Below, in pieces: positions 3,626-59,000 of a stretch of DNA of 64,000 nt. Below the pieces are notes generated by a model. That model saw only the letters and a list, made by a program, of their open reading frames with translations. It was not told the DNA's origin and did no database searches. The stretch lies in assembly GCA_965242965.1 (NCBI GenBank), contig OZ251518.1, forward strand, positions 416,001 through 480,000, given 5' to 3'. The stretch is from Candidatus Poribacteria bacterium (GTDB lineage Bacteria > Poribacteria > WGA-4E > WGA-3G). Position numbers and translations under genes: made by a program. Every line of letters starts with the position of its first letter. The stretch's first letter is position 1.

Positions 3626-3627
3626 GC

Positions 3628-4290
3628 TGTGGGGGGGCATAAATGGTTCAACGTCGCGGGGGACAGGCCCCCGCGCTACGGTTAAAAAAACGCCGCCCCA
3701 TCCCGTAGGGCTTGGGCCCTCGCATGCCATACGCGCATGCGAGAGGGTTTCCCTCGCCATGCGTTTTGGTGTCAGAGCGCCTCACCCCTGTAGTTCAGGA
3801 GCGCCTGCTCCTGACCCGTTCGGGAGCGGGCGCTCCCGAACTACAGAGGGGGAAACCCTCATCGTAACGATGGAGATCGCGGGGGACAGGCCCCCGCGCT
3901 ACGGTAGGTGGGGCGTGCGCTCATCACGTCTGTAGGTCAGGAGCGCCTGCTCCTGACCCGTTCGGGAGCGGGTGCTCCCGAACTACAGAGGGGGAAACCC
4001 TCATCGTAACGATGGAGATCGCGGGGGACAGGCCCCCGCGCTACGGTAGGTGGGGCGTGCGCTCATCACGTCTGTAGGCAGGAGCACCTGCTCCTGACCC
4101 GTTCGGGAGCGGGTGCTCCCGAACTACAGAAGGGGAAACCCTCATCGTGACGATGGCGATCGCGGGGGACAGGCCCCCGCGCTACGGTAGGTGGGGCGTG
4201 CGCTCATCACGTCTGTAGTTCAGGAGCGCCTGCTCCTGACCCGTTCGGGAGCAGGCGCTCCCGAACTACAGAAGGGGAAACACTCATCAT
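3628..4290. repeat. REP cluster with a ~142-bp unit repeated ~3.5 times
   Basis: Units start at about 3788, 3930, 4072 and 4213. Each has a B-type inverted REP pair (GTAG(T/G)TCAGGAGCGCCTGCTCCTGACC...GAACTAC) followed by an A-type REP (CGCGGGGGACAGGCCCCCGCGCTAC); the last unit is truncated. Confidence 0.92.
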
Positions 4291-4303
4291 CCTGATTTTA
4301 AAC

Positions 4304-4333
4304 TTGCAATGCATTGCGAATTTAAGGTATAAT
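4304..4333 (+). promoter_or_regulatory. Sigma70-like promoter, probably giving a leaderless transcript
   Basis: TTGCAA-N18-TATAAT, with the ATG at 4340 only 6 nt after the -10 box. Confidence 0.6.
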
Positions 4334-4339
4334 CACATT

Positions 4340-7300
4340 ATGACAACACTTAACCTGAAACCAACTCACAAAGCGATAACCGCCTATTATGCCGCACTCA
4401 ACAGGTATCAACAGCACGGGGTAACCCACGAAACCGCCGTGCGCGCCGCCTTTCAAGCACTCCTCGAAGCCTGCACGCGACAACTTGACTGGACGCTGAT
4501 TTGTGAACAGACACTACGCCTCCCCGATAGAAATCCTATCCGCCTCGATGGCGCGCTGCTCGACGAACATAGTTTGCCCCGCGGCACCTGGGAGGCAAAA
4601 GGCGTTAAAGGAGCTCTCCGCGCCGAAATCAATAAGAAATTCGACGCAGGCTATCCCCAGGACAACATCCTCTTCCAAACACCGGAACGCGCCATTCTCT
4701 ATCAAAACGGACGCGAAGTGATGGACGCAGACATCACCGCACCGGAAACGCTTGTCACGGTGTTGCAGACGTTCTTTGCCTACGAGCGCGCGAACGCCGC
4801 CGAATGGCGCGCCGCCGTCGCACGCTTCAAAGAACTTGTCCCCGAACTCGGGGCGGAGGCGGCGAACCTTATCCAAACGCAGCACGAAACAAACGCGCAA
4901 TTCCGCGCCGATTTCACCGCGTTTCACGAACTCTGCAAAACCGCCATCAACCCGAATCTCTCGGCGGCGGCTGTCCAAGAGATGCTCGTCCAACATCTTC
5001 TCACCGAACGGATGTTCCGCACTGTCTTCGAGGATCCGGATTTCGCCCACCGCAATATCATCGCCCGCGAAATTGAAAAAGTCCTCAAGGGAACACTGGC
5101 GAACTTCCTCAACCGCGGCCAACTGCTCCAAAAACTCACGCCGTTCTATCGCGAAATCGAACGCGAGGCAGCTACACTCGTCGATTTCTCGCAGAAACAG
5201 CACTTCCTCAACACCGTTTACGAGCAGTTCTTCCAAGGCTTCTCCGTGAAGCAGGCGGATACGCACGGCATCGTTTACACCCCGCAGCCTATCGTCGATT
5301 TTATGGCGAACAGCGTCCAGCATATCCTCCAAACCGAATTCGACCACGCGCTGGCAGATGAAGGCGTTCACATCATCGATGCGTTCGTCGGCACCGGCAA
5401 CTTCATCGTCCGACTCATGCGCGACATCCCCAAGACGAAACTGGAGGCGAAATACCGAAACGAACTCTGGTGCAACGAAGTGCTGTTATTGCCTTATTAC
5501 ATCGCCACGCTCAACATCGAGCACGAATTCTACGCCGCCACCGGCACCTATCTGCCGTTTGAAGGCATCTCCCTCGTGGATACGTTCGAGTTAGCGGAAG
5601 ACCGGCAGTTGTCGCTCTTAACCGCTGAAAACACGGCGCGTGTGGCGAAGCAGCAAGCCTCGCCGATGTTCGTCGTCATCGGAAATCCGCCCTATAACGC
5701 CGGGCAAATCAACGAAAACGATAACAACAAAAATCGGAATTATCCGACGCTGGAGGCGCGCGTGCGAGAAACCTATGCGAAAGACTCCACCGCAACGCTC
5801 AAAAATTCGCTCTATGACACTTACGTCAAGGCACTTCGTTGGGCTTCCGATAGGATTGGCAAACAGGGGATCGTCGCGCTCGTCACGAATAACAGTTTTC
5901 TTAGCGGCACCTCGTTTGATGGCATGCGGAAACACCTCGCTGAAGACTTTGATGCCATCTATGTCGTCGATTTGGGCGGCAATGCGCGGCGTGATAAACT
6001 TGTCGCTGATGCAAGCGTTTTTGGTATCCGCGTCGGGGTGAGTATTAATTTTTTCGTGAAAAACCCTTCCCGGCGATCGCGGGGGACAGGCCCCCGCGCT
6101 ACGGTGCCTTCCGGTCTCGATGGGATCGCGGGGGACAGGCCCCCGCGCTACGGTAACGGGGAAAATTCCGCGCGCATCTTCTATTACCGCACCGATGACG
6201 CGTGGAACAAACACCAGAAATTCGATTTCTTGACGCAAACTGAACACGTTGGGAATGTGGACTGGCAAACGCTAGAACCCGATGCACGAAATACCTGGCT
6301 CACCGAAGGACTCAACCCTGAATTTTTGACGTTCATGCCGATAGGGAGCAAAACGGCAAAACGGGAAAAAAAGGAGCCCGCCGGGGTGATATTCCACCAG
6401 TTCAGCAACGGTTTGAAAACAAACCGGGATGCATGGGCTTACAACTTCAACCGCGATGCGCTCGCTGAAAACATGCAGCGCATGATAGGTGCCTATAACG
6501 CGCAGGTCTCCCAGTGGCGCGATAGGGACGACAACGCGGAGATAAGTGTTGACGATTTTGTCGATGCCGACTTGCGGAAAATCAAATGGAGTGGCGATTT
6601 GAAAACCGCTCTCAAAAAAGGGGTTTTCGCGGCGTTTTCCAATGAAAAATTGCGAACGTCTCTCTACCGTCCTTTCACCCGTTCTTTTCTGTTCTTCGAC
6701 CGGCTCATGAATAACGGCACCTTTCTTCAGCCCTATATCTTCCCTACGCCGGAGACAGAAAAGGAAAATCTCGTTCTCTCTGCCGCGGGAACTGGGCATC
6801 GGACGGGATTTGGCTGTCTCGTCTCAAACGTCATTCCCAATGTAGATCTTGCCTATGAAAAAGGGCAGTGCTTCCCGTTCTACTTTTACGATGAAGATGG
6901 CACTAACCGCCGAGAAAACATCACCGATTGGGCATTGGAAAACTTCCGCAAGCACTATGGCGACGATACCATCACGAAATGGAACATTTTCCACTACACC
7001 TACGGTATCTTGCATCATCCTGCGTATCGCGAACGTTACGCCGCTGATCTCAAGCGCGATTTACCGCATATCCCCTACGCCGACGATTTCTGGGCATTTG
7101 CAAACGCCGGCGCACGGTTAGCGGAACTTCATGTCAACTACGAGGCGCAGCCGGAGTATCCGCTCACGTTTGTCGAAGATGCGACGCGGCAGTTGGATTT
7201 CCGCGTGGAAAAAATGAGGTTGTCCAAGGACAAGACCTCGCTTATCTATAACGAGTTTCTGACGTTGGAGGGGATTCCTGCGGCGGTGTTTTCGTATCGC

Positions 7301-7492
7301 TTGGGTCAGTATTCGGCGTTGGAGTGGGTGGTGAAGCAGTATCGTGTGAAGGCGGATGCGCGGAGTGGTATTGTGAACGATCCGAACGATGCGTCGAATC
7401 CGCGTTATATCGTGGAGCTCATCGGTTCGGTGGTTACGGTGAGTTTGGAGACGTGTAAGATTGTTGGGGGTTTGCCATCGTTTCGTTCGTGA
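4340..7492 (+). CDS. Type IIG / type ISP-like restriction-modification fusion (nuclease + N6-adenine MTase + specificity domain)
   Basis: N-terminal LDG...WEAK (PD-(D/E)xK-like), GIVYTPQPIVDFM, IIDAFVGTGNF, VIGNPPY, and a C-terminal YRPF / ENITDWAL / SALEWVVKQY LlaBIII-like region. Confidence 0.88.
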   Translation: MTTLNLKPTHKAITAYYAALNRYQQHGVTHETAVRAAFQALLEACTRQLDWTLICEQTLRLPDRNPIRLDGALLDEHSLPRGTWEAKGVKGALRAEINKKFDAGYPQDNILFQTPERAILYQNGREVMDADITAPETLVTVLQTFFAYERANAAEWRAAVARFKELVPELGAEAANLIQTQHETNAQFRADFTAFHELCKTAINPNLSAAAVQEMLVQHLLTERMFRTVFEDPDFAHRNIIAREIEKVLKGTLANFLNRGQLLQKLTPFYREIEREAATLVDFSQKQHFLNTVYEQFFQGFSVKQADTHGIVYTPQPIVDFMANSVQHILQTEFDHALADEGVHIIDAFVGTGNFIVRLMRDIPKTKLEAKYRNELWCNEVLLLPYYIATLNIEHEFYAATGTYLPFEGISLVDTFELAEDRQLSLLTAENTARVAKQQASPMFVVIGNPPYNAGQINENDNNKNRNYPTLEARVRETYAKDSTATLKNSLYDTYVKALRWASDRIGKQGIVALVTNNSFLSGTSFDGMRKHLAEDFDAIYVVDLGGNARRDKLVADASVFGIRVGVSINFFVKNPSRRSRGTGPRATVPSGLDGIAGDRPPRYGNGENSARIFYYRTDDAWNKHQKFDFLTQTEHVGNVDWQTLEPDARNTWLTEGLNPEFLTFMPIGSKTAKREKKEPAGVIFHQFSNGLKTNRDAWAYNFNRDALAENMQRMIGAYNAQVSQWRDRDDNAEISVDDFVDADLRKIKWSGDLKTALKKGVFAAFSNEKLRTSLYRPFTRSFLFFDRLMNNGTFLQPYIFPTPETEKENLVLSAAGTGHRTGFGCLVSNVIPNVDLAYEKGQCFPFYFYDEDGTNRRENITDWALENFRKHYGDDTITKWNIFHYTYGILHHPAYRERYAADLKRDLPHIPYADDFWAFANAGARLAELHVNYEAQPEYPLTFVEDATRQLDFRVEKMRLSKDKTSLIYNEFLTLEGIPAAVFSYRLGQYSALEWVVKQYRVKADARSGIVNDPNDASNPRYIVELIGSVVTVSLETCKIVGGLPSFRS

Positions 7493-24124: not shown

Positions 24125-26173
24125 TCAGGAGACGTTTTCCTGGAACCAATCCAACGACGGCCAGATTTCGTAGAAATAAAGGATTAATTCTTCCGCCCTC
24201 TCGCGAATTTCGTTGACATCCCATCTGTCATGCCTGTATATCTCCTTATTCAGTTTCAAGCGTGAATGCTTATTTAAAATTTTTTTCTTCTCGGCGAATT
24301 CCTTATCGCGCAGACGGGAGTTGAGCTGCCGTGTGACGAGCGTTAGGTTGCCTATACTTTGTAAGAAATCATCTCTCACTATCGCCAAATTAAAAGCATG
24401 CAAATAGGATTCTTTAGCCAACGCATCCCTGGAAGGTCTTCCGAAATTTGCCTTCTTCACTTTATCGGCATCAGCAAAGAATTGCGGGTTTTTCACTATA
24501 TAGTCGTCAGTAAAGAGTTCCTTGTAGTGGAGTAGAACACCCGCGTCTCCAACTTCGCTGTTGAGATAGAGGCCGTCCTTTTCGCGGACGATAGTTCCGG
24601 CGACTGGTAAACACCAAGTTTTTTTCCAATTTTTTGGCATTACGTGTTCCAAGGTAAAATTAGCGTCGTTAAAAACTGCAGGTTCTGTGAACTGGTCTTC
24701 ACTTATTTTCATCTGTTCAATCCGGTACAGGATGTAACGAATGAGTCTTATTTTGATTTGACCTGCTGTTTCAAACCAATGCCTATGCAACACAGCTTTG
24801 ATAGTCATATTGTCGGGAAAAACGACAGTATCCTCGTCAGGAAAGAGTGTTGGAGATTCGTCGTATTGAATGTGCAGTGCAGGTTCAACCTCATCATCAC
24901 TGGGATGCCTTAGTGTATCTGAGGTTTCCTTAACTAGGCGTTCTATGAATTTTCCAACACTAAAATCTTTTCCAAGTTCTTTAACGAGTTTAGAAAAGAA
25001 TTGGTTGAAATTTTTCACGCCGCCTTCGCCGCGACAGCACAACATACGCCGGATTGTGTAAGACTCCAGAATATCAAAGACGTGCTGAAGTGCGTCCCCG
25101 GATAGTCTTACTTCGCACGTTACAAATAAGATAAACGGATGCAGCGTTGTGAGGTTGAAGATTTGATAAAACTTCATTCTCCGACCGATTTCCGAATCAT
25201 CGTTGCAATCGGTCATTTCCTGATAAATCTCTGAATATCGCTTTAATTCGGAAAATTCGTGTTCTATGCCGAGGCAGTTATCCTCTAGTCCCCGACGATA
25301 CCGCCGCTGATACGCCTTAAACTCCGGTCTAACCTGCTCTGTTCCTAGTTTTGCCATGAGAAAGTGCTGGAGGAAGAGTTCGGAGGAGGTTCCCGAATTC
25401 TTTACTTCTGGATCCCAATAGGGAGTCTCAAAGTGTGCCCAGTACCGGTTATAGAATGTGTCTCTGTCTGCACCAGCCCTCAGAAATAGGTTATTCCGGA
25501 GTAAATCAAATTCAAGCAGACGTTTTCCTCTTGCATTGATCGACTCAAATATCTTTTCGGGTTCATCATCTGGACCCAGCGATATTTGAACCAGACCAAA
25601 GTCATGCAGAATTGAACGAAATAGGGCAAGTAATTTCTTTTTTTCGCCGTTCGCGTAATCCGCAATCTCATTTTTGAAATAGCAAAATGCTGAATGAATG
25701 CGGCTATCACTAGAACCTGCAAGTCCCTCAACTAGTGATTGGAATGCCTCTCTATCAAACTCGGTTGGAACAAGTTTATAGCGCTCATCTTCACTGAGCA
25801 GCATCCCTGAATTCTGTATGTAGAGGTTTACGTCGTTTGCAATGTCATCATAATTGTGTGCTTTGGATATATCTTTCAGCGCACAAAAGATAATTTGAAA
25901 CGTTGTAAGACGTTGTTGCCCATCAATAATTTCATATTTTGGGACTGTCCCGGCACTTGTCATCACTTGTTGGATGACGATGGCCCCAGTAAAATGGCTA
26001 AATTCTTGAGCTTGGTATTGTGAGGATTTTCGGTGCAATTTTCCTACAATATCTTCCCAAAGTGGTTGCCACTGATCCTCCCTGTTCCAGACGTAATGCC
26101 GCTGGAAAAGGGGGATTCGGAACTGCAAATTTTGTCCAAACAAAGAAGCTATCTGTAATTTGGTTACGTCCAT
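24125..26173 (-). CDS. GmrSD-family (DUF262 + DUF1524/HNH) modification-dependent nuclease
   Basis: IPLFQRHYVW, IIDGQQRLTT, IFESINARG, TLEHVMP...IGNLTL...LNS. Visibly AT-richer than the flanks. Confidence 0.88.
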   Translation of the reverse strand: MDVTKLQIASLFGQNLQFRIPLFQRHYVWNREDQWQPLWEDIVGKLHRKSSQYQAQEFSHFTGAIVIQQVMTSAGTVPKYEIIDGQQRLTTFQIIFCALKDISKAHNYDDIANDVNLYIQNSGMLLSEDERYKLVPTEFDREAFQSLVEGLAGSSDSRIHSAFCYFKNEIADYANGEKKKLLALFRSILHDFGLVQISLGPDDEPEKIFESINARGKRLLEFDLLRNNLFLRAGADRDTFYNRYWAHFETPYWDPEVKNSGTSSELFLQHFLMAKLGTEQVRPEFKAYQRRYRRGLEDNCLGIEHEFSELKRYSEIYQEMTDCNDDSEIGRRMKFYQIFNLTTLHPFILFVTCEVRLSGDALQHVFDILESYTIRRMLCCRGEGGVKNFNQFFSKLVKELGKDFSVGKFIERLVKETSDTLRHPSDDEVEPALHIQYDESPTLFPDEDTVVFPDNMTIKAVLHRHWFETAGQIKIRLIRYILYRIEQMKISEDQFTEPAVFNDANFTLEHVMPKNWKKTWCLPVAGTIVREKDGLYLNSEVGDAGVLLHYKELFTDDYIVKNPQFFADADKVKKANFGRPSRDALAKESYLHAFNLAIVRDDFLQSIGNLTLVTRQLNSRLRDKEFAEKKKILNKHSRLKLNKEIYRHDRWDVNEIRERAEELILYFYEIWPSLDWFQENVS

Positions 26174-34338: not shown

Positions 34339-35922
34339 TCAAGACCGGAACGTAATAAGTGCCGCCACTGCCGCAAAAGCCTCCTCGCGCGTCCGAATTT
34401 CACCATCCAATTGACGCTCCTCAATCTCTGCCAGCAGAAACCCAATTTCCCTTCCCTCTTTTAAGTCAAACCGATGAATCAGGTCTTCGCCCGTGATGAG
34501 TCTTCCCTGCTTCAGGATAGGTAGAAAATGCTGATAGTAGGTATCGACAATCTGCGAGGTCCGCGCATCTGTGATGCCGTGCAGTGCGGACGCGAAAAGC
34601 AGCGCGCCTAACCAATCAGATCCTGTCCGCCGCAAAAAGCGGATTATCTCGCGGCGCGTCAGTTGTTCTGCTGCCAGTAGTCGATGTTCCGACGCGAGGC
34701 ATTTCAGAAATTGCGATGCCTTTCGGCTCAACTTAAGCCGTTTCGCCACATCACCGAGTTCGCCTTGCAGGAGTAGACAGAGTTTAATCAATGAACTGCG
34801 GTTGACTTCCCACTCTAATTCGGTTTCCAGATAGGTGTCGCAGTCTGGCTGCGTGTAGTTCCAGGGATCGCGAGGGACAGGCCCTCGCGCTACGGGCGTG
34901 GCGGCGGGCTTGAGATAGGTGTCGCAGTCTGGCTGCGTGTAGTTCCAGGGATCGCGAGGGACAGGCCCTCGCGCTACGGGCGTGGCGGCGGTATTGAGAT
35001 AGGTATCCCAGTCTGGCTGCGCGGGGTTGGTGGATTCAAATCTGTCTAGTGCGTTCCAGGGATCGCGGGGGACAGGCCCTCGCGCTACGGGCGTGGCGGC
35101 GGACTCTTGAACAGGTTCGCGCGCGCCGGTAGGAGAGACCTCCTGGTCTCGATGCATCCCCGTAGGAGAGACCTCCTGGTCTCGATTTCTTCCGGTAGGA
35201 GAGACCTCCCGGTCTCGATGCCCTCGCGCTACGGGGGTAGGGACAATCTGCGTCAATAATCCTACCTTCCACATTTCTTGCAAATAGGGACTTGCTTTCT
35301 CAACCTTGAGGATTTTCATCAATTCATCGCGAATCCGTTCGGCGGAAACACGAGGCAACAAGGCATGATGTTTTTTGATGAGCGCGAGGGAGTCATGACA
35401 GATTTCAAAGTTGAGTTGCGCCGCGAACCGATAGATACGGATGAGACGAAGCGGGTCTTCGTGGATTACCCGTTCACTCGGAAATCGGAGTTGGCGCGCT
35501 GTTAAATCTGCCATGCCGCCGCCCGGGTCGATTAACCTGGGGACAGGCAAGCGCGCCGACTCCAACATCGCCTCAAGCGGAACCGCCATCGCGTTAATCG
35601 TCAGATCGCGGAGTTGCAAATCATCGTTGAGTGACGCGGCACGAAATTGCGCGAAATCCATACTCACGGTTTGCTTTTTGAAGACAACGCGCGCCGTAGG
35701 AGGCCGCTCATCAAGCCCGACAAAACCCCCACCGACGTGAGCAGCAAACGCTTTCGCAAACGGAATCGCGTCCGTAGCCAACGCGAAGTCCAAATCTGCC
35801 GTGGGACGATTCAGCAGCAGATCGCGGACGCTGCCGCCGACGAGGTAGAGTTCCACACCGCGCGTCTTCGCAAATTTTTGGAGTTGCGCGAGATGAGGGA
35901 TGAGGGTTTCTGGTATCTTCAT
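34339..35922 (-). CDS. CCA-adding / poly(A) polymerase-family nucleotidyltransferase with a large in-frame REP-derived insert
   Basis: LYLVGGSVRD, DLDF, DLQLRDLTINAMA, EDPLRLIR..RF, VSAERIRDEL and a C-terminal ITGEDL...G.EIG. Confidence 0.85.
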   Translation of the reverse strand: MKIPETLIPHLAQLQKFAKTRGVELYLVGGSVRDLLLNRPTADLDFALATDAIPFAKAFAAHVGGGFVGLDERPPTARVVFKKQTVSMDFAQFRAASLNDDLQLRDLTINAMAVPLEAMLESARLPVPRLIDPGGGMADLTARQLRFPSERVIHEDPLRLIRIYRFAAQLNFEICHDSLALIKKHHALLPRVSAERIRDELMKILKVEKASPYLQEMWKVGLLTQIVPTPVARGHRDREVSPTGRNRDQEVSPTGMHRDQEVSPTGAREPVQESAATPVARGPVPRDPWNALDRFESTNPAQPDWDTYLNTAATPVARGPVPRDPWNYTQPDCDTYLKPAATPVARGPVPRDPWNYTQPDCDTYLETELEWEVNRSSLIKLCLLLQGELGDVAKRLKLSRKASQFLKCLASEHRLLAAEQLTRREIIRFLRRTGSDWLGALLFASALHGITDARTSQIVDTYYQHFLPILKQGRLITGEDLIHRFDLKEGREIGFLLAEIEERQLDGEIRTREEAFAAVAALITFRS

Positions 35923-36548
35923 TTGCCAGCCTGTGCTTTTCGTCCCCGTGCTTTTTGTCGTTGCGCCTTGCGCGATTGGAACAGGATACCGTCCAGATGC
36001 AGATGCGTCGCATAACCGATGAAACTCGCCACGTAGAACGGCAGCCAGTTTGGGAACGCATCCGGGATCGCGGTATTGAGGAGCAATCCGATGAATTCAA
36101 GCGGTTCTTCCCAGCCCGCGCCCCATTCGGGATATGTAACGTAAATCGGGATGACCAGGAAGAGGCACGGTAACAGGAACATCGTAACTTTGGAATGCGT
36201 CCATCCGCGGTGCTTGCTGATAATCGGCAGCATCGCGAAGAGTCCTAGCAGTGCGGATTCCAGATACATCCCGAAAACGAGGAGAGCGGCGTTCAATGCG
36301 AATAACACCCGATAGAAGAGTTTCTGGCTCTTGCTTTTGATGTCCACATCCGGCCACAATCCGAACAGCACCGCGATGGCGAAGCATCCGGCGATTTTCA
36401 ACGGCTGCACTGGTGATGGAATGGTTGGATTCCATGCCAGCGGTAATTCAGTAAGGAGTGAAACGGCGAGGGTTGCTACAAGAGAGATGACGAAAAAGGT
36501 GGTGTAGGTAATTATCCCGCCGATCCAGTGTTCACGAAACATGCTCAT
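35919..36548 (-). CDS. Membrane-bound metal-dependent hydrolase (YdjM/DUF2227-like)
   Basis: EH..GG, LWPDVD, KHRGWTHS and GYATHLHLD, with TM helices. Start placed at MSMFREH. Confidence 0.8.
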   Translation of the reverse strand: MSMFREHWIGGIITYTTFFVISLVATLAVSLLTELPLAWNPTIPSPVQPLKIAGCFAIAVLFGLWPDVDIKSKSQKLFYRVLFALNAALLVFGMYLESALLGLFAMLPIISKHRGWTHSKVTMFLLPCLFLVIPIYVTYPEWGAGWEEPLEFIGLLLNTAIPDAFPNWLPFYVASFIGYATHLHLDGILFQSRKAQRQKARGRKAQAGK

Positions 36549-36607
36549 AGGAGATAGTCTATCATAATTTTTGAAAAATTGCAATACCTATAAGCGGTGC
36601 TTGATTA

Positions 36608-37228
36608 CCGTAGGGCGGGGGCCTGTCTCTCGCCGTGTCTGTATTGCGGGGTCGGAGCAGACTCCCGATTCCCGTAGGGCGGGGGCCTGTCCCCCGCCAT
36701 GCCCGGGATAATCGAGCACTCGCGAGGGACAGGCCCTCGCGCTACGGTGAGCGGGAAAACGCTACGGGGATCGAGAGATCGCGAGGGACAGGCCCTCGCG
36801 CTACGGTTATTCGGAGCGGGCTCCTCATTAACCGTAGGGCGGGGGCCTGTCCCCCGCCGTGCCCGTGTCGCGATGAAAGTTCGCGAGGGACAGGCCCTCG
36901 CGCTACGGTGAGCGGGAAAACGCTACGGGGATCGAGAGATCGCGAGGGACAGGCCCTCGCGCTACGGTTGTCGGAGCAGGCTCCTCTTATCGTAGGGCGG
37001 GGGCCTGTCCCCCGCCGTGCCTGTGTTGCGCGGAACGTTCGCGAGGGACAGGCCCTCGCGCTACGATAAAACGGGGCGTTTTGTGTTCCACCGAGCGTTC
37101 GCGAGGGACAGGCCCTCGCGCTACGGTTGTCGGAGCGGGCTCCTCATTAACCGTAGGGCGGGGGCCTGTCCCCCGCCGTGCCCGTGGTAGGCGAGAAATC
37201 GCGAGGGACAGGCCCTCGCCCTACGGTT
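36608..37228. repeat. Large A-type REP cluster (BIME-like)
   Basis: About 12 units of GTAGGGCGGGGGCCTGTCCCCCGCC and CGCGAGGGACAGGCCCTCGCGCTAC with repeated linkers. Confidence 0.92.
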
Positions 37229-37294
37229 AAATCAAGTTTTTTCACAAAAATCTTAACAAAAAACGCGGAAATCTGCTTAAAATCACATTTTAAT

Positions 37295-37323
37295 TTGACA
37301 AACGCGCAAAAATGTGGTATACT
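37295..37323 (+). promoter_or_regulatory. Near-consensus sigma70 promoter about 590 nt upstream of the large surface protein gene
   Basis: TTGACA-N17-TATACT with an extended -10 TG. Confidence 0.75.
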
Positions 37324-37373
37324 ATATACTATATAGTAAAAATTGCCATGTTTAGTGCGAAAACGAACAAAGG

Positions 37374-37911
37374 ATGCCAGACGTGAACTCTCAACCCGTT
37401 TTTCTCATTGCGGATACCCACATCCGCCCGAATAACGCGATTGCAACGACGTGCCAGCCACCCCGGCTGCGCGCCGTGTCTCCATTTGCGCGTCCAGTTG
37501 ATGACACCGCACTAAACATAAGTTCGATTTACCCCCCCCCGTCCTAAATGCCCGTTAACCTTTGACGTTATCGGCAGGAAGGCGGTTCAAGGGGATGTCT
37601 CTCATCTGAATCCCAACCCAAAATCCGCGTGCTTTGCACGCGCCTATGTTCTTTTGCCTCGTGGCACGCGCTCGCCTTCGCGAGTCCGCGCCTGCCACGG
37701 GGCTTTTCGCGTTGCATCGCCCGATGCAGCACCGATGTCTACCAGCGTTGTTCCGGGGAAAATTCACTCCCCACTTTGGGTATTAAGGGGCAGGATAACC
37801 GTGGGCACCCGCCCACGGTTATCTTGTTTTCTCCGAGACACGCGCGCCTTTCGCCTACCGAGGCGGGAGTCCCCTATTCATTTCATTTCTATAACTCTTG
37901 GAGGCATTTGA
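37374..37911 (+). other. Leader ORF split by a frameshift at a C9 tract
   Basis: One frame is open 37374-37547. A second frame is open 37522-37911. They overlap only around C9 at 37532-37540. Confidence 0.5.
37791..37832 (+). terminator. Terminator-like hairpin inside the leader
   Basis: CAGGATAACCGTGGGC-ACCC-GCCCACGGTTATCTTG (16-bp stem, one G-U) followed by TTTTCT. Confidence 0.55.
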
Positions 37912-40900
37912 ATGACAAGCAAATCGCTTTTTTCCTTAAGTTTACTGCTGCTTGCCACCCTAGCGGTTTCCCTCGGAACAGGGACGGAAGCGCAGGCACA
38001 AACTTACACAATTAACGCCGTTAGAATTTATGTGAACCCTGACATGGTAGACCCTAGTGAGGATGGCATGCCCGTTGAGTTTGCCGACGCGCGGACGAGT
38101 CCCATTGGCGGCAAACTGCCGAAGGTTGCCAATTCCTCTGTCGGGACGTTGAGCACCGAGGGAGGTGGTGTTGAAATCACCGCAACAAACGCGCACGATA
38201 GCACAACTCCCTATACCGCGAACGCGGGAGACATCATCGCCATTGCCTTTCAGGTAACCGCGACAGGGGGTTCGGTCCTTCACGGCTCAGTCATCTCTCT
38301 CGCTGGTTGGGAGACGGGCGGCCCACGGGGGATGGTTGGCGTATATACAAAACCCCTGTACCCGAGCCGCTTGATAGAAGGAAGTGGCGGTTCGGCTGTG
38401 ACTGTCCCCTCGCCCTACAACTTTACCGTGGTATACGCCTACCCGGTGAGGTCTGACGACATGGACGCGGATGGCGATTGGCTGTTCCATCGTTCTGGTA
38501 ACAGGCCTTTCCACCGCTGGACTGGAGCGTTAAACGCGACTTATTCCGCCCCTATCACTGTCCGCTATCCCAGGATAGATGGTAGCGTTTCGACGATTCC
38601 GACGGTGACGCGCCTGACGATAAACAGGCCGCCCGCCGGGCAGTCAGGACGCTCCCGCTATTACAAAGTCCGCCAAGAGTGTTTGGATCATCAACGAAAA
38701 TACGCGGCTGTCTACACGAATGCTTGTGAATTAGTGCAGGACCACGGCTGGGCTCTTCCCAACGATCCGACTCATCCGGTAACGCTGGCCAATAGCCTGC
38801 CGACTGCCTTTTTCAAAGCCGGCGACACGATAGAATTTCAGTTGCAGTTTAGCGAAGAGGTGATTGTGACAGGGGCTCCAATCCTAGAGCTCATGCTTGA
38901 TGGGGGCACCGGACGGATGCACTACGTACCCGCCGGGAGTGGAGCAACGACACTTACCTTCCGATACACAGTGCAACAAGGCGATACGGCTTTCGGTGGC
39001 ATCGCGGCTTGGAATGCCTGGGGTAACATCAGGGATGGCAATAGCATCGAAGATATATCAGGGCATAAAGTTAATAGCGTTACCCGGGACGTTGAATCGG
39101 CGATTCGGGCATTTTTTGCCGGTCAAGAGGGCATCAGGGCGGAGGAGGCTCATCCCTGGTTAGACCCGCCAGGTGCCCACTGGAAAAAGTATGCCACCGG
39201 TATCGCTGAATACCTTGTGGATACTGTCCCGCCGACGGTGTGGATTCCCGGCTTGATAAAGAATGGGGAGACACACACCGACGATAGACGGAATACGTTT
39301 GTGAGTGTGGAACCGACTTATCTTGCTGTCCCTACATTTACGGAGGCAGATCTCCGAGCGGTTGTTACGGAAAGTGAATCACAGACAGATGCCTTTGATG
39401 TGGAATTCCGCTTTTTTAATTGGGACGGTGGGGCACTAGCCGACGAAGTGGGGATTAGTTTTACCGGCGATGATGTGGAGATCACGGGGGCGAATGTGGA
39501 GCGAGCCGATTGGGCAGTTGAAACTACCTATATCGGATTAGACCATCGTGCTACCAATCAGTGGCCGCCTACCGACAGAGCGGGGCAGCCAGCGGGTTCA
39601 GCCCATAAGCCAGGGCATGCCAAGAACTCCGCGTCGTTCCTCGTCTACAAGGCGACAATTCGTCCGGCCCTGGGTTTTCAGGGCAACGTGTCCATCAGTT
39701 TGCCGGCGGGTGCTACTCAAGATATCGCCGGCAACGACAGTTATGCCTCAAATACGTTGACAGTGCCCGTGAACAATCCATTGCGCGTGGTGGAAAAGCC
39801 GGAGATTGTCGTGCCTCCCGCCGGTGTCCATACTGCCGGGGATAAGATTGAAGTGGAAGTGACGTATGACAAGGAGAATCTCCGCTATGAAGGCGAGAAC
39901 CCGCCGTATGTGACGCTTTATCTCGGCGAAGAAGTGCCGGCAAATGCAAGGCATGCAACATGGCAACGCGCCGAAGACGCAAATTCCACGAAAGTGACGT
40001 TTGCGTATACGGTGGCAGCAACGGACACGGTGGCAGAGGCAGTGCGTGTCCCTTCCGTCAAGATAATGGTTCCTGAAGAGACGAGTTTGCTTTCTGGTTC
40101 CCTCGGTGCGTCGGCTGAGCGGCAGTCTGGAACAGAGGAGCGTGCGGCGGCATCTGGTGCTGCGCCAACAACGGTGCCGACGGTAGAGCCGTCGCCGTTG
40201 GAAGATACGTCTGGACGTGAGATTGCCCCGGTAGTTTCGGAGACACCGGTGGTGCCGGTGATTTACCTTCCGGAAACGTCAGATCCGAAGGCGGTTGCAT
40301 CGGCTGTGCCTCGCAAGCCCATCGTTTTCAACGAACTCGGCAACGGCAGCGGCGATGCTGATGACTGGCTGGAACTTCGCAATGTCACCGGTGATGCAGT
40401 CTCGTTAAAAGACTGGGAGCTCAGCATCGTGCAGGATGGCAAGAAGGAAGATACCTCCCTGATTGCTTTTGTAGAAGATGTGAGTGTGCCGGCGAATGGG
40501 CTGTTGTTGCTCGTGAATACGTCACCGGACAAAACGTCTCTCGCCGGTGGGGATAACGTGGAGACTGCCGAGGTCGAGACAAAAGGTTCTTCGCACCAGT
40601 ATCTTGTCAAATCGGAGTTGTCCCTACCAGATGATGGCAAGTTCCTCTTGATTCTCCGGAACGCGAAGGATAAACGCGGCTTGAACGAGGCGTTCGTGGA
40701 TGTCGCCGGTGGCGGCGGCAGTGACACGGATGCGTTTGTCCGCGAGCAGACAGGCGATTATGATACGCATGTCTGGCCCTTGCAAGTGTTGCAGGCACCG
40801 GGTGGTGACACTGAAGATGCCCTCGGCTCAGGCAAAGTCTGGCAGCGCGCCAAGGCGGACATTGTGGGATACCACAAAGATGCCTGGGCAGAATCGGCGT

Positions 40901-41994
40901 TCACCGGTATCGGTTACGATAGGAAGGTGACAGAGTCTCCTGCCACTTCCGGCACGCCGGGATATCCGAATGGTGCTGTCAAAACGGAAGCTGCCACGCC
41001 GAAGGGAAGTGTCACGCTCAGCGAAATCATGTTTGATTCTGCAGGTGGCACATTGCCGCAGTGGATCGAACTCTACAACAATTCCAAAACGGATGCAATC
41101 AATCTCAACCGCTGGAGGTTGGAGATTCAGAACGTCGACTCCGAGGATTTAGTCGGCCGCCCGATTGTCACGTTGACGTTAGGAGAAAAAGTGATTCAAC
41201 CGAATCAAACGTTGCTCATCGTCGCAGGTCCGGCGCGTGCGTCATCGGATTCGTATCTGCCGGCGGATAGAGTTTACGATCTGCTTGCACTGCATGAGAA
41301 GAATCTGCGTATCAAGCGTGCGCGGGATACGTTCTTGAGTACCGAGGGGTTCTACTTGCAACTCTCCGATAGAAACGGGAATCTGGTAGACGAAGTCGGG
41401 AATAGGGACAGCGACAGGCGTTCGGATGATGCGCCGGCATGGGCATTACCGCTGAGTTTTGAGGAAGGTTCGCGGAGTTCTGTCATTCGGCGTTACGATA
41501 AAGGGGTTGCGCTGCCGGGACGAAAGCGTGCGAGTTGGGTGTTGGCATCGCGCATCAAGCCGTTTGATGAGTCTCTCCATTACGGCCATGCTGAGGACAT
41601 CGGCACACCGGGGCATCGCGAAGGTGGTGCATTGCCGGTGGAGTTATCCAGTTTCTCGATGACGCGTAATGAAACAGGTGCTGTTGTCTTGACATGGACA
41701 ACCGAATCTGAGGTAGATAACGCCGGTTTCAATCTGCGTCGCAGTGAAAAGCGCGCGAGCGGTTTCACGCTCTTGAATCCTGCCTTAATCGCCGGTGCCG
41801 GCACGACGGGTGAACGTCAAACTTACACGTTTACCGACACATCGGCGAAGCCGGGAATTGAGTATTACTATCAGATCGAGGAAGTTGCGTTTGATGGGAA
41901 GCCGGAGACGTTAGTGACGCGGTTGTTGCCGGGTCCTGTTTCTGCATCTAATCGGATGCTGACGACATTCGGCGAAGTCAAGCAGCAGGAGTAA
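37912..41994 (+). CDS. Large secreted/surface protein with Ig-like repeats and two lamin-tail-like domains
   Basis: Signal peptide; FKAGDTI..FSEEV.VTGAP.L...GSG.TTLTFRYTV; IVFNEL..DWLELRN; LSEIMF..QWIELYN; GTPG; LPVELSSF...WTTESEVDNAGFN; C-terminal MLTTFGEVK. Confidence 0.82.
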   Translation: MTSKSLFSLSLLLLATLAVSLGTGTEAQAQTYTINAVRIYVNPDMVDPSEDGMPVEFADARTSPIGGKLPKVANSSVGTLSTEGGGVEITATNAHDSTTPYTANAGDIIAIAFQVTATGGSVLHGSVISLAGWETGGPRGMVGVYTKPLYPSRLIEGSGGSAVTVPSPYNFTVVYAYPVRSDDMDADGDWLFHRSGNRPFHRWTGALNATYSAPITVRYPRIDGSVSTIPTVTRLTINRPPAGQSGRSRYYKVRQECLDHQRKYAAVYTNACELVQDHGWALPNDPTHPVTLANSLPTAFFKAGDTIEFQLQFSEEVIVTGAPILELMLDGGTGRMHYVPAGSGATTLTFRYTVQQGDTAFGGIAAWNAWGNIRDGNSIEDISGHKVNSVTRDVESAIRAFFAGQEGIRAEEAHPWLDPPGAHWKKYATGIAEYLVDTVPPTVWIPGLIKNGETHTDDRRNTFVSVEPTYLAVPTFTEADLRAVVTESESQTDAFDVEFRFFNWDGGALADEVGISFTGDDVEITGANVERADWAVETTYIGLDHRATNQWPPTDRAGQPAGSAHKPGHAKNSASFLVYKATIRPALGFQGNVSISLPAGATQDIAGNDSYASNTLTVPVNNPLRVVEKPEIVVPPAGVHTAGDKIEVEVTYDKENLRYEGENPPYVTLYLGEEVPANARHATWQRAEDANSTKVTFAYTVAATDTVAEAVRVPSVKIMVPEETSLLSGSLGASAERQSGTEERAAASGAAPTTVPTVEPSPLEDTSGREIAPVVSETPVVPVIYLPETSDPKAVASAVPRKPIVFNELGNGSGDADDWLELRNVTGDAVSLKDWELSIVQDGKKEDTSLIAFVEDVSVPANGLLLLVNTSPDKTSLAGGDNVETAEVETKGSSHQYLVKSELSLPDDGKFLLILRNAKDKRGLNEAFVDVAGGGGSDTDAFVREQTGDYDTHVWPLQVLQAPGGDTEDALGSGKVWQRAKADIVGYHKDAWAESAFTGIGYDRKVTESPATSGTPGYPNGAVKTEAATPKGSVTLSEIMFDSAGGTLPQWIELYNNSKTDAINLNRWRLEIQNVDSEDLVGRPIVTLTLGEKVIQPNQTLLIVAGPARASSDSYLPADRVYDLLALHEKNLRIKRARDTFLSTEGFYLQLSDRNGNLVDEVGNRDSDRRSDDAPAWALPLSFEEGSRSSVIRRYDKGVALPGRKRASWVLASRIKPFDESLHYGHAEDIGTPGHREGGALPVELSSFSMTRNETGAVVLTWTTESEVDNAGFNLRRSEKRASGFTLLNPALIAGAGTTGERQTYTFTDTSAKPGIEYYYQIEEVAFDGKPETLVTRLLPGPVSASNRMLTTFGEVKQQE

Positions 41995-55770: not shown

Positions 55771-55819
55771 AAACTGATGCACTACCTTTCTGAAATGACC
55801 CCCCCCTGATCTGGCCCGG

Positions 55820-57208
55820 ATGCTTATTCGTGGGGATAACTTAATTGAGATGCGGAAGATACCGGATAACGTCGTCGCTCTCATCGCGACGGATCCGCCG
55901 TTCAATTCTAAACGCGACTATTTCGTGCCGTATCGCGATGAACACGGAAAAGAGCCTGACACCCTCGTCAAAGCGTTCACCGATACATGGAAATGGGGCG
56001 ACGCGGCCGAGGCAACGTGCGATGAACTTATTCGCGACATCGGCGGCGCGATAGGCGAGACGATTGAGGGGTTACGACTCTTTTTGAAGCAAACGCCGAT
56101 GATGGCGTATTTGGTGATGATGGGAGTTCGGCTAGTGGAGATGCACCGGATTCTGAAACCGACGGGTTCAATTTATCTCCACTGCGATGCGACTGCGTCG
56201 CACTATCTGAAAATTTTGATGGATGCCGTTTTCGGCGCGAAAAATTTCATGAACGAACTCGTTTGGTGTTATTCCTGGCCCCGGAATTCCAAGCGATATT
56301 ACGCGCGAACGCACGATAGTATTCTTTTTTACACCCTCGGCGACAAATGGACATTCAACGCCGATGCAATACGTCAACCTTACGCGGCGGCATCGGAAGG
56401 CAGAGATGCCTATGCTGCCAATGCATCGCAGTTTGGGGATGCTGTTGTGCTGGATAAGCGCGGGAAACTCCCGCAAGACTGGATAATTCTGCCGCCTGTC
56501 CGTCCGAATGCGAATGAACGTGCAGGTTATCCGACGCAGAAGCCGATAGCCCTCTACAAACGCATCATCCAAGCCTCTAGCAACGAAGGCGATTTGGTGC
56601 TAGATCCGTTCTGTGGTTGCGGCACGACACTCCTTGCGGCGGAGGCACTCAATCGGCGATGGCTCGGCATTGATTTGACATACCTCGCCACGGGAGCCGT
56701 CACACTGCAGATGGAGAAATTCTTCCCGCAGGTGAAGGACAGCATCGTTATCACCGGCACGCCAGAAAACGTAGACACTGCGCTGCAACTTGCCCGCGAA
56801 GACCCGGGTGGGTTTGAGGAGTGGTGTGTGACGCATGTGCTAAAGTTTACCTCAAACGCCAAAAAGGTAGGCGATGGCGGCATTGATGGCACATATCGGT
56901 TTCCTATCGGCAAGGTAAAGGGACGCACGGCTTATGGAAAGATGGTTGCACAGGTGAAAGGTGGGAAGTATAGCCTCGGGCATATCCGTGATTTTCGGAC
57001 AGCGATGACGAATGCACAAGCGGATTTGGGCATCTTTGTCGTGACGCGGCCCCCGAGCGCCGGAATGCGCGCGGAGGCGAGTCGTGCAGGGATGTGGAAA
57101 CATCCGCTGTGGGATATGACATGTCCACGCGTGCAACTTTATGAGATTCAAGATTATTTTGATGGCACCCTGCCGAAGATACCTGTGGGAGAACGGCGGG
57201 TGCTGTGA
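55820..57208 (+). CDS. Beta-class N4/N6 DNA methyltransferase fused to an Mrr-like nuclease domain, copy 1
   Basis: GDNL, ATDPPFNS, GYPTQKP, VLDPFCGCGTT and a C-terminal FEEW...GDGGIDG...QVKGG. The likely true start at 55777 is out of frame at a C8 tract. Confidence 0.88.
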   Translation: MLIRGDNLIEMRKIPDNVVALIATDPPFNSKRDYFVPYRDEHGKEPDTLVKAFTDTWKWGDAAEATCDELIRDIGGAIGETIEGLRLFLKQTPMMAYLVMMGVRLVEMHRILKPTGSIYLHCDATASHYLKILMDAVFGAKNFMNELVWCYSWPRNSKRYYARTHDSILFYTLGDKWTFNADAIRQPYAAASEGRDAYAANASQFGDAVVLDKRGKLPQDWIILPPVRPNANERAGYPTQKPIALYKRIIQASSNEGDLVLDPFCGCGTTLLAAEALNRRWLGIDLTYLATGAVTLQMEKFFPQVKDSIVITGTPENVDTALQLAREDPGGFEEWCVTHVLKFTSNAKKVGDGGIDGTYRFPIGKVKGRTAYGKMVAQVKGGKYSLGHIRDFRTAMTNAQADLGIFVVTRPPSAGMRAEASRAGMWKHPLWDMTCPRVQLYEIQDYFDGTLPKIPVGERRVL

Positions 57209-57311: not shown

Positions 57312-57418
57312 TACGCTGGCAGTTCTGCGAGTCTATCCATGCTAAAATTACCGAAACAATCGGAGTGAAAGTTGATGCACTACGTCTTTGAAATGACCCC
57401 CCCCCTGATCTGGCCCGG

Positions 57419-58861
57419 ATGCTTATTCGTGGGGATAACTTAATTGAGATGCGGAAGATACCGGATAACGTCGTCGCTCTCATCGCGACGGATCCGCCGT
57501 TCAATTCCAAACGCGACTATTTCGTGCCGTATCGCGATGAACACGGAAAAGAGCCTGACACCCTCGTCAAGGCGTTCACCGATACATGGAAATGGGGCGA
57601 CGCGGCCGAGGCGGCATGCGATGAACTCATCCTTGAAGTTGGTGGACAGATAGGTGAGACGATTGAGGGGTTACGACTCTTTTTGAAGCAGACTCCGATG
57701 ATGGCGTATTTGGTGATGATGGGGGTGCGGCTGGTGGAGATGCACCGGATTCTGAAGCCGACAGGTTCGCTGTATCTCCACTGTGATTCGGCCGCCAGTC
57801 ACTACCTAAAACTCCTCTTGGATGCTGTGTTTGGACATGCGAACTACCGTAACGAAATCATCTGGCGGAAGTATGCGGGACGCAAGAACAACGCCAAGCA
57901 TAAATTCGCCACGCAAACTGACACAATCCTGTTTTATGCCAAAAGCAAAAATGCCGTTTTCAATCCGCTGTTTGAGCCAATTTCAGACAAGGAGATTGAG
58001 AAAAAATATCGTTACACCGACGATGATGGAAGGCGGTACCGTTTGAGTTGGGGCCGGCATTATCAGATGACAGGTGAACAGCGGCGTATCTATCTGGACA
58101 AACAACCCGGTGCTGCTATCGGCTCTTTGTGGGCGGAAGATGGATTGCAGCTGAATACCTCTACAAGAGAACGCGCGGGGTATCCGACGCAGAAGCCGAT
58201 AGCCCTCTACAAGCGCATCATCCAAGCCTCCAGCAACGAAGGCGATCTGGTGTTAGATCCGTTCTGTGGTTGCGGCACGACACTTCTCGCTGCGGAGGCA
58301 CTCAATCGGCGATGGCTTGGCATCGATTTGACGTATCTTGCCACGGGAGCCGTCACACTGCAGATGGAGAAATTCTTTCCGCAGGTGAAAGACAGTATTG
58401 TTATCACCGGCACGCCGGAAAACGTAGAAACCGCGCTGCACCTTGCACGCGAAGACCCGGGTGGATTTGAGGAGTGGTGTGTCACGCATGTGCTGAAGTT
58501 TACCTCAAACGCCAAAAAGGTGGGCGATGGCGGCATTGATGGCACCTATCGGTTTCCCATCGGCAAGGTGAAGGGACGCACGGCTTATGGAAAGATGGTT
58601 GCACAAGTGAAAGGTGGGAAATATAGCCTGGGGCATATCCGTGATTTCCGGACGGCGATGACGAATGCGCAGGCGGATTTAGGTATCTTTGTCGTGGCGC
58701 GGCCGCCGAGTGATGGAATGCGCGCCGAGGCGAGTCGTGCAGGGATGTGGAAACATCCACTGTGGGACATGACATGTCCACGCGTGCAGCTTTATGAGAT
58801 TCAGGATTATTTTGATGGCACCATGCCGAAGATACCTGTTGGGGAGCGGCGGGTGCTGTGA
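57419..58861 (+). CDS. Beta-class N4/N6 DNA methyltransferase-Mrr fusion, copy 2 (different central region)
   Basis: Near-identical to copy 1 except about 57770-58175. The likely true start at 57375 is out of frame at a C9 tract. Confidence 0.88.
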   Translation: MLIRGDNLIEMRKIPDNVVALIATDPPFNSKRDYFVPYRDEHGKEPDTLVKAFTDTWKWGDAAEAACDELILEVGGQIGETIEGLRLFLKQTPMMAYLVMMGVRLVEMHRILKPTGSLYLHCDSAASHYLKLLLDAVFGHANYRNEIIWRKYAGRKNNAKHKFATQTDTILFYAKSKNAVFNPLFEPISDKEIEKKYRYTDDDGRRYRLSWGRHYQMTGEQRRIYLDKQPGAAIGSLWAEDGLQLNTSTRERAGYPTQKPIALYKRIIQASSNEGDLVLDPFCGCGTTLLAAEALNRRWLGIDLTYLATGAVTLQMEKFFPQVKDSIVITGTPENVETALHLAREDPGGFEEWCVTHVLKFTSNAKKVGDGGIDGTYRFPIGKVKGRTAYGKMVAQVKGGKYSLGHIRDFRTAMTNAQADLGIFVVARPPSDGMRAEASRAGMWKHPLWDMTCPRVQLYEIQDYFDGTMPKIPVGERRVL

Positions 58862-58882: not shown

Positions 58883-59000
58883 CATCGCGGGGGACAGGCC
58901 CCCGCGCTACGGTGAAAATGAGATTGACATCGCGGGGGACAGGCCCCCGCGCTACGGTGAAAATGAGATTGACATCGCGGGGGACAGGCCCCCGCGCTAC
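58883..59000. repeat. 45-bp tandem A-type REP units (about 2.6 copies)
   Basis: ATCGCGGGGGACAGGCCCCCGCGCTACGGTGAAAATGAGATTGAC repeated. Confidence 0.9.

Follow-up and report, generated by a model that had tools for sequence, protein, structure and literature searches.

A poly-C tract in a small leader frame upstream of a large secreted-protein gene of a Candidatus Poribacteria bacterium: a candidate phase-variable attenuation switch

Introduction

In gonococcal pilC, a poly-G run located in the signal-peptide region acts as a classical in-gene slippage switch. Here, a related but distinct arrangement is described for a stretch of 64,000 nucleotides (nt) of a Candidatus Poribacteria bacterium (contig OZ251518.1, positions 416,001 to 480,000; hereafter referred to as the window), in which a run of nine cytosines (C9) is found in a small leader frame upstream of the gene for a 1360-amino acid secreted protein, the presumed target of regulation. 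A preliminary description of this DNA had proposed that the run forms an ON/OFF switch, which acts through transcription attenuation and translational coupling. As in the pilC type, a homopolymer is present near the 5' end of a surface-protein gene and one of three phases would be productive, and two paralogous loci, L001 and L002, appear to be of exactly this type; in the window, however, the run is located upstream of the main frame, and a frameshift cannot truncate the protein.

Two further systems show how the movement of ribosomes can decide about transcription downstream. In the siaD gene of Neisseria meningitidis, slippage of a poly-C tract inside the gene is linked to Rho-dependent termination. 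The sequence of events, namely poly-C slippage, early release of the ribosome and loss of downstream transcription, would be the same in the window; however, the siaD run is part of the structural gene, and loss of the transcript adds to the loss of the protein. The pyrBI attenuator of Escherichia coli possesses a leader frame that extends through the terminator hairpin, and a ribosome that closely trails the RNA polymerase prevents formation of this hairpin. The input of pyrBI is the pausing of the polymerase at low levels of uridine triphosphate, a physiological signal. The window would share the frame-through-hairpin logic with pyrBI, whereas its input would be heritable, namely a change in run length. 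The siaD tract consists of seven cytosines according to a recent review (PMC11868660).

The closest described system is the pil1/pil3 switch of Streptococcus gallolyticus. Slippage in a GCAGA repeat lengthens a leader peptide, and the translating ribosomes then block a terminator, which was demonstrated genetically; out-of-frame changes of the repeat move the leader stop codon into or past the stem-loop terminator (Danne et al. 2014, PMC3894217). According to a further review, RNA is protected from Rho by the ribosomes that translate it, and attenuation dependent on upstream frames is known (PMC12360218). In the leader of Helicobacter pylori tlpB, a G-repeat is targeted by the small RNA RepG (PMC8295292). 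In the literature searched, phase variation of a leader peptide coupled to attenuation was found for one organism only. Literature combining phase variation with upstream frames or Rho yielded nothing relevant, the words leader, untranslated, terminat, uORF and Rho are all absent from the 2025 phase variation review PMC11868660, and the only paper in which 'Poribacteria' and 'phase variation' occur together has no bearing on the present topic.

The window resembles the pil1/pil3 system in several respects: downstream of a promoter lies a small leader frame, which has a ribosome-binding site of its own and contains a putatively slippage-prone repeat; a stem-loop with a T-run lies between the stop codon of the short form and a gene for a surface structure; and the leader frame is extended into or through the stem-loop by out-of-frame changes of the repeat, with a single long phase among the three. 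It differs from this precedent by a single-base C run in place of GCAGA units, without any sequence relationship, by the presence of two candidate hairpins in a leader of about 580 nt, and by paralogues that carry the module inside the structural gene. Moreover, the organism belongs to a candidate phylum with a diderm-type envelope and not to the streptococci. Like tlpB, the window has a variable homopolymer in an mRNA leader, rather than in the gene or in a promoter spacer, which would tune expression; however, the tlpB repeat is an untranslated base-pairing target, whereas the window run is part of a frame with a conserved start and is followed by stop codons in two frames. Taken together, the proposed window switch is likely a non-homologous, homopolymer-based version, from a distant phylum, of a kind known from one organism.

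Results

The coordinates of the locus are summarized in Table 1. The near-consensus promoter that had been reported at 37295-37323 is present, and a consensus scan of 2 kilobases (kb) revealed two promoter-like sites compared to a mean of 1.0 in shuffled sequences. From here, the leader frame, which may begin at ATG 37374 or at GTG 37383, runs through the C9 tract to TAA 37545-37547, exactly as previously described. A second frame, which is also the frame of the large gene, is closed at TAA 37513 and at TAA 37519, the latter being the stop given in the preliminary description, and is then open up to TGA 37909-37911, which directly abuts ATG 37912. With C8 or C11, both frames are joined to a single frame that crosses hairpin H6 and ends at TGA 37909-37911; its length of 175 codons from GTG or 178 codons from ATG agrees with the approximately 180 codons calculated earlier. 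With C9 and C10, translation would end 244 and 233 nt before H6, at 37545 and 37556, respectively, in good accordance with the former estimate of about 250 nt. Thus, one phase in three is long in the window leader.

Table 1. Features of the leader and of the downstream gene; positions refer to the window.
Feature	Position	Strand	Remarks
Sigma-70-type promoter, TTGACA-17 nt-TATACT, TG before the second hexamer	37295..37323	+	11/12 matches
Leader ribosome-binding site AAGGA (37370-37374) and GTG start (37383-37385)	37370..37385	+	AAGGA 8 nt before GTG
Leader frame, present short phase, stop TAA 37545-37547	37383..37547	+	54 codons from GTG; 57 amino acids from ATG 37374
C9 homopolymer, proposed slippage site	37532..37540	+	homologous runs C8 (L001), C12 (L002), C11 (L003)
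Long-phase frame (C8, C11), 122 sense codons, then TGA 37909-37911	37543..37911	+	also read in the natural long forms P0005 and P0019
TAA closing the second short phase (C10, C7)	37556..37558	+	equivalent stop ends P0003, P0008 and P0009
Hairpin H3, candidate first attenuator	37656..37712	+	stem 37656-37703, ~-35 kcal/mol, then TTTTCGCGT (TTTTC)
Hairpin H6, candidate attenuator	37791..37835	+	stem 37791-37826, 16 pairs, loop ACCC, then TTTTCTCC (TTTTCT)
Main ribosome-binding site GGAGG (37900-37904), 7-nt spacer, ATG 37912	37900..37914	+	sequence
Gene for the 1360-amino acid secreted protein with lamin-tail domains, presumed regulated gene	37912..41994	+	signal peptide

The C run is located 372 nt upstream of the main frame. 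Because this frame possesses its own start and signal peptide, a frameshift caused by a change in run length cannot truncate the main protein. The repeat inside the structural frame, which characterizes the classical in-gene switch, is not found at this locus, where the leader and main frames are kept apart by TGA 37909. Of 34 listed homologues, 30 start with a signal peptide of this kind and have a motif in common. The previous statement that the switch would not act by frameshifting the gene itself is in line with GGAGG, ATG 37912 and the signal peptide of the main frame. It was also considered whether the long frame encodes a protein of its own or extends the main protein at its N-terminus; this was rejected, as the long frame lacks a coding signal and a stop codon separates the frames, and an extension is further countered by the finding that none of the 34 listed homologues contains at least three prolines within the first 150 residues. 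Likewise, a function of the C run as promoter-spacer repeat was ruled out: the run starts 209 nt past the -10 hexamer, and no promoter-like site spanning it was detected in the consensus scan.

Closed genomes contain two or three paralogues of the main protein each. Five related loci of the large protein (L001 to L005) were confirmed among 27 pattern matches, all of them from one Poribacteria genome bin; L004 and L005, whose 5' ends are missing, were not used for the comparison of 5' regions. C runs are found at the homologous 5' place in the other three paralogous loci, namely C8 in L001, C12 in L002 and C11 in L003 compared to C9 in the window. These runs are the only C or G runs of at least eight nucleotides in approximately 27 kb of L001 to L003 and are sited between promoter and main frame. 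The promoter, the start region and a CCGTTAA motif past the run can be aligned between the loci, and the -35 sequence TTGACAA is invariant in all four aligned leaders.

The module is used in two ways. In L002, the run comes immediately after a signal peptide, which starts at an ATG with a good ribosome-binding site; a tract of C10 or C13 would connect this start to a frame of 1123 codons. In L001, C9 would join a 5' part of 45 codons to a frame of 1427 codons. Judged from this arrangement, both loci are classical in-gene switches, which have been assembled out of phase. L003, on the other hand, is built like the window: AGGAGA and a GTG are present at the aligned position, followed by a homologous frame with C11 and a long, repeat-rich leader, and the main gene downstream of it has its own GGAGGA-ATG and signal peptide. 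Leader and in-gene versions of the poly-C module would thus be present side by side in one gene family. The alignment of the window and L003 leaders is unreliable beyond about 90 nt past the run.

Some irregularities were observed in these loci. L003 contains an N gap in the leader (2157-2176), and two separate frames (2475-2900 and 2785-6477) make up its main gene. The main frame of L002 (1984-5304) stops at 5304 although the protein match extends to 6399. These broken main frames could be assembly errors or decayed copies.

An exhaustive search of metagenome protein sets yielded seven matches to the leader frame, one of which (P0007) was dropped as an unrelated repeat protein of 746 amino acids, and word-indexed searches yielded five short and six long matches. 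Together with the window and L003, these 17 peptides provide 19 leader frames, nine of which are short and ten are long. Their first approximately 50 residues can be aligned, and two prolines at the run are invariant in 19 of 19 frames. The called start is found at the position of the window GTG in 11 of the 17 homologous peptides; with the Shine-Dalgarno sequence and start position also being kept in L003, the claim that the run sits in a conserved small frame is well founded. An identical stretch of 23 residues before the run is followed by three different frames in P0010, in P0008 and P0009, and in P0019. Five of the nine long peptides (P0005, P0019, P0014, P0015 and P0018) cross H6 when mapped on the window, and two more (P0002 and P0017) terminate 7 nt short of H6, at the stop codon that corresponds to TAA 37784, whereas P0004 and P0016 could not be aligned as far as H6. 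Long forms that reach or cross the hairpin, as had been deduced from the window, are hence represented by seven of the nine natural long peptides. The anatomy of the leader, a conserved tract whose phase differs from genome to genome, and the existence of natural long forms extending to the hairpin are apparent from these sequences.

The window leader itself looks like a mosaic (37383-37531). Its first half matches the P0009 subtype, and the 25 residues that immediately precede the run are almost the same as in P0018, the first half of which belongs to the other subtype. This hints at recombination between paralogous leaders.

The codon usage of the short leader frame shows a modest coding-like signal, a point in favor of its translation. 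Its log-odds score is +0.11 per codon compared to -0.61 and -0.47 in its own shifted frames; this is above 99.7% of off-frame windows and below 96% of true-frame windows. The leader frames of the window and L003 differ by two indels of 12 and 3 nt. No family was found for the leader peptide or its long forms in Pfam and NCBIfam searches. C8 words are mildly enriched in the window (six compared to 2.19 expected), six being reached by 3 of 100 shuffles. What goes beyond chance, as judged from the aligned loci, is the conservation of a C8 to C12 run at the homologous place in four of four loci with 5' ends. In addition, sense-strand stop codons are depleted after the run, with four in the window (shuffle mean 7.2, P=0.084) and three in L003 (shuffle mean 8.5, P=0.006); such a deficit is not seen on the opposite strand or in three control intergenic regions.

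Downstream of TAA 37545, the leader consists of about 365 nt of strongly folded RNA. The whole leader folds with a z-score of -6.96, and none of 20 shuffles folds as well. In a loose scan of the window, 105 sites that combine a hairpin with a T-run were detected, and H3 and H6 take the first two ranks in stability among them. The 16-base pair hairpin with T-run, which had been noted at 37791-37832, was found with all 16 pairs at 37791-37826 and a subsequent TTTTCT; it lies 85 nt before the main start, and both of its arms are conserved in close relatives, as judged from two translated frames. In the fold of the leader, the main ribosome-binding site is largely base-paired, with a mean probability of 0.25 for being unpaired. 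The C run is unpaired in about 40% of the ensemble, and the 78-nt windows around it are the most C-over-G-rich ones of the leader (C/G ~2.1). No further copies of the leader or of H6 were found within the window. A second promoter between H6 and the main start was considered and rejected, since no candidate was detected in this interval in the consensus scan or by eye. Rfam 15 yielded no match in the whole window at gathering score; with E<=10, 25 matches were obtained for 36500-38100, all of them far below gathering scores and only two in the leader past the promoter.

Two further elements of the leader RNA were observed. A perfect 12-base pair long-range pairing of 37348-37359 with 37508-37519 is part of the minimum-energy and the centroid folds and encloses the leader ribosome-binding site, the start codon and nearly the whole frame before the run; both arms are kept in close relatives, as seen from translations. 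The block CCGTTAAC followed by GTTATCGGCAGGAAGG past the run (37551-37582 in the window, 1789-1820 in L003) is the part in which the window and L003 leaders are best conserved. The idea that this CCGTTAAC...GTTATCGGCAGGAAGG block folds into a consistent hairpin was rejected, as the window and L003 fold it differently. L001 likewise carries the CCGTTAA motif (1252-1258).

Discussion

The findings can be combined into the following mechanism. The C9 run would be a contingency tract that is prone to slippage and is embedded in a small leader frame, which would be translated and forms part of a highly folded leader RNA of about 580 nt. Its length would set the frame after the run: in two of three phases, the ribosome would be released within two to six codons at TAA 37545 or TAA 37556, and in the third phase (C8 or C11) ribosomes would travel 122 further codons over H3 and H6 to the TGA beside the main start. 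A ribosome that trails the RNA polymerase would block folding of H3 and H6 and shield the RNA from Rho, thereby allowing more transcripts to reach the surface-protein gene. In the short phases, to which C9 belongs, the leader would be bare and transcription would be attenuated. Slippage within a population, terminator activity of the hairpins, and both the direction of the effect and its route are inferred. The whole chain from slippage tract via ribosome travel to attenuation of the surface-protein gene, as deduced from the sequences, is judged about equally likely to hold or to fail, and it is more probable than this that the tract is a true contingency site. The preliminary description had regarded the present copy as OFF: C9 indeed gives a short phase, but 'off' is better read as 'low', as in pil1, and a low-expression state is predicted for this copy. 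From the proposed switch acting by attenuation and coupling, the first part is favored by the leader frame, the phase differences, the long forms and the precedent of pil1/pil3, whereas the coupling at TGA/ATG found no support in the comparison of homologues.

A number of observations weigh against the proposed attenuation switch. The abutment of TGA and ATG is not conserved, since the long frames end at six different window positions (37783, 37872, 37881, 37889, 37913 and 38006) and the assembled long phase of L003 (C11) ends 383 nt upstream of the main ATG. In P0018, the most similar leader, the long frame overruns the main ATG in another frame up to 38006, 94 nt inside the main gene. L003 lacks a counterpart of H6, and two of its three phases are long. 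The stop codon of the window short form lies 244 nt before H6 compared to 39 bp in pil1. H6 was not listed by a consensus terminator scan, and the T-runs after H3 and H6 comprise only four T's each, compared to five to seven in clearer terminators of the window. A frame that stays open for 122 codons after the run is not far from chance in dinucleotide shuffles (P=0.05 for that frame, P=0.14 for any frame), and it shows no coding signal (-0.13 per codon compared to -0.30 and -0.19 in shifted frames). The stop-codon deficit of L003 is inflated and partly non-independent because this leader holds repeated units. Moreover, frame openness and the ratio of short to long forms are biased because the homologues were found as gene-caller predictions. 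The multi-megabase contigs, from which several leader peptides originate, may be long-read assemblies, in which homopolymer lengths are error-prone, and differences in run length between assemblies could be assembly errors. Finally, the differences between the window and L003 leaders, counted from the alignment, amount to about 12, 15 and 18 at codon positions 1, 2 and 3, respectively. Because they are spread over all codon positions, the sequence of the leader peptide is only weakly constrained, and frame changes about 20 codons upstream of the run in P0006 and P0017 also argue against a strong constraint on the peptide. This pattern fits a leader frame whose translation would count more than its product.

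Several other explanations have to be considered. The module could be a fossil, that is, the remnant of an in-gene phase-variable 5' end, which supplies the promoter only and whose run length has no effect. That the module is in frame with the main gene of L001 and L002 in one phase out of three (1427 and 1123 codons), that the main gene of the window has its own ribosome-binding site, ATG and signal peptide, and that the frame after the run is devoid of a coding signal and open to an extent near chance would all agree with such an origin. An unselected run would be expected to decay, however, whereas a long homopolymer has been kept in both leader-type loci (C9 and C11) and its two prolines in 19 of 19 frames; together with the conserved Shine-Dalgarno sequence and start codon and the depletion of sense-strand stop codons, this makes a fossil unlikely. 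Control might also be exerted at the level of translation only, with ribosomes of the long phase either opening the main start by re-initiation at TGA/ATG or occluding it and no termination in the leader. Such a model draws on TGA 37909 abutting ATG 37912, on the pairing of the main ribosome-binding site and on the long frame of P0018, which passes over the main start. It is nevertheless considered distinctly improbable, as the abutment is not a conserved end point of long frames and only weak, local pairing surrounds the main start.

It has to be doubted even more strongly that no switch exists at all, in other words that the run is fixed in each genome, that phase differences are homopolymer errors of assemblies or differences between paralogues, and that the leader represents nothing more than a normal folded 5' region with many palindromic repeats. 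Several peptides are indeed derived from single multi-megabase contigs, the main frames of both L002 and L003 are broken, with an additional N gap in L003, and one palindromic repeat is present in the window in 64 copies. However, four independent loci carry a run at the same place, all three phases are found behind identical stretches of 23 residues, and two more window genes have poly-C runs of the classical contingency type at their 5' ends. Very little probability is assigned to the idea that the run acts as RNA, as a length-graded site for Rho, a small RNA or a protein, independently of leader translation: the location of the run inside a frame with conserved Shine-Dalgarno sequence and start, and the stop codons that directly follow it in two frames, speak against a function of this kind, even though its surroundings are the richest in C over G of the leader, the run is partly unpaired, and the targeting of the tlpB leader repeat by RepG provides a precedent (PMC8295292).

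It is tempting to speculate that the promoter, the start and the poly-C run form a portable cassette, which is used inside the gene in L001 and L002 and as a separate leader frame in the window, L003 and their relatives. The sense strand after the run would then be kept poor in stop codons to permit several ribosome run lengths, thereby leading to a graded rather than a binary output. This extended view, in which graded output is possible and contingency loci are general in the symbiont, is regarded as rather doubtful; if it were true, then, together with the two methylase runs described below, contingency loci would be a general strategy of an uncultivated sponge symbiont.

Should the attenuation switch itself be confirmed, it would represent a second, unrelated and homopolymer-based case from a distant, uncultivated phylum, which would show that the mechanism is general and mean that surveys limited to promoter and in-gene repeats overlook such switches. 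It would also be a first sign that Poribacteria vary large surface proteins, and probably DNA methylation, in a stochastic manner. Stochastic variation of the surface would bear on the life of a symbiont with sponge phagocytes and phages. The locus is of a compact design, which is testable in a laboratory host.

Other poly-C tracts and genomic neighborhood

The window contains two tandem genes (55820-57208 and 57419-58861) that each encode a DNA methylase fused to an Mrr-like nuclease domain. Each is associated with a poly-C run, C8 at 55799-55806 and C9 at 57397-57405, and the flanks of the two runs are nearly identical (regions 55777-55822 and 57375-57421). Upstream ATGs (55777 and 57375) are preceded by GGAG and would be joined to the respective gene only at C10 or C7, and the annotated ATGs lack a ribosome-binding site. 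From this organization, both methylase genes look like classical phase-variable genes, which are out of phase here. A further C8 run (1010-1017) is found roughly 100 nt ahead of an RraA-like gene, in intergenic DNA that is rich in repeats; no frame relationship was seen there.

The leader and its gene are located between a divergent YdjM-like gene, beyond which a gene for a CCA-adding enzyme is found, and the rimP-nusA-infB cluster. Just upstream of the leader promoter lies an array of palindromic repeats of about 640 nt (36600-37240) with a period of about 160 nt. The palindromic repeat, which consists of the core GCGAGGGACAGGCCCTCGC, usually followed by CTACGG, occurs in the window in 64 copies with at most two mismatches compared to none in shuffled sequences, and some copies are located inside listed reading frames, for instance, at 6079-6146, 34870-35083 and 58887-58995. 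The neighborhood is rich in defence genes, with a Type ISP restriction-modification enzyme and a GmrSD-type nuclease being encoded in the window (4304-7492 and 24125-26173).

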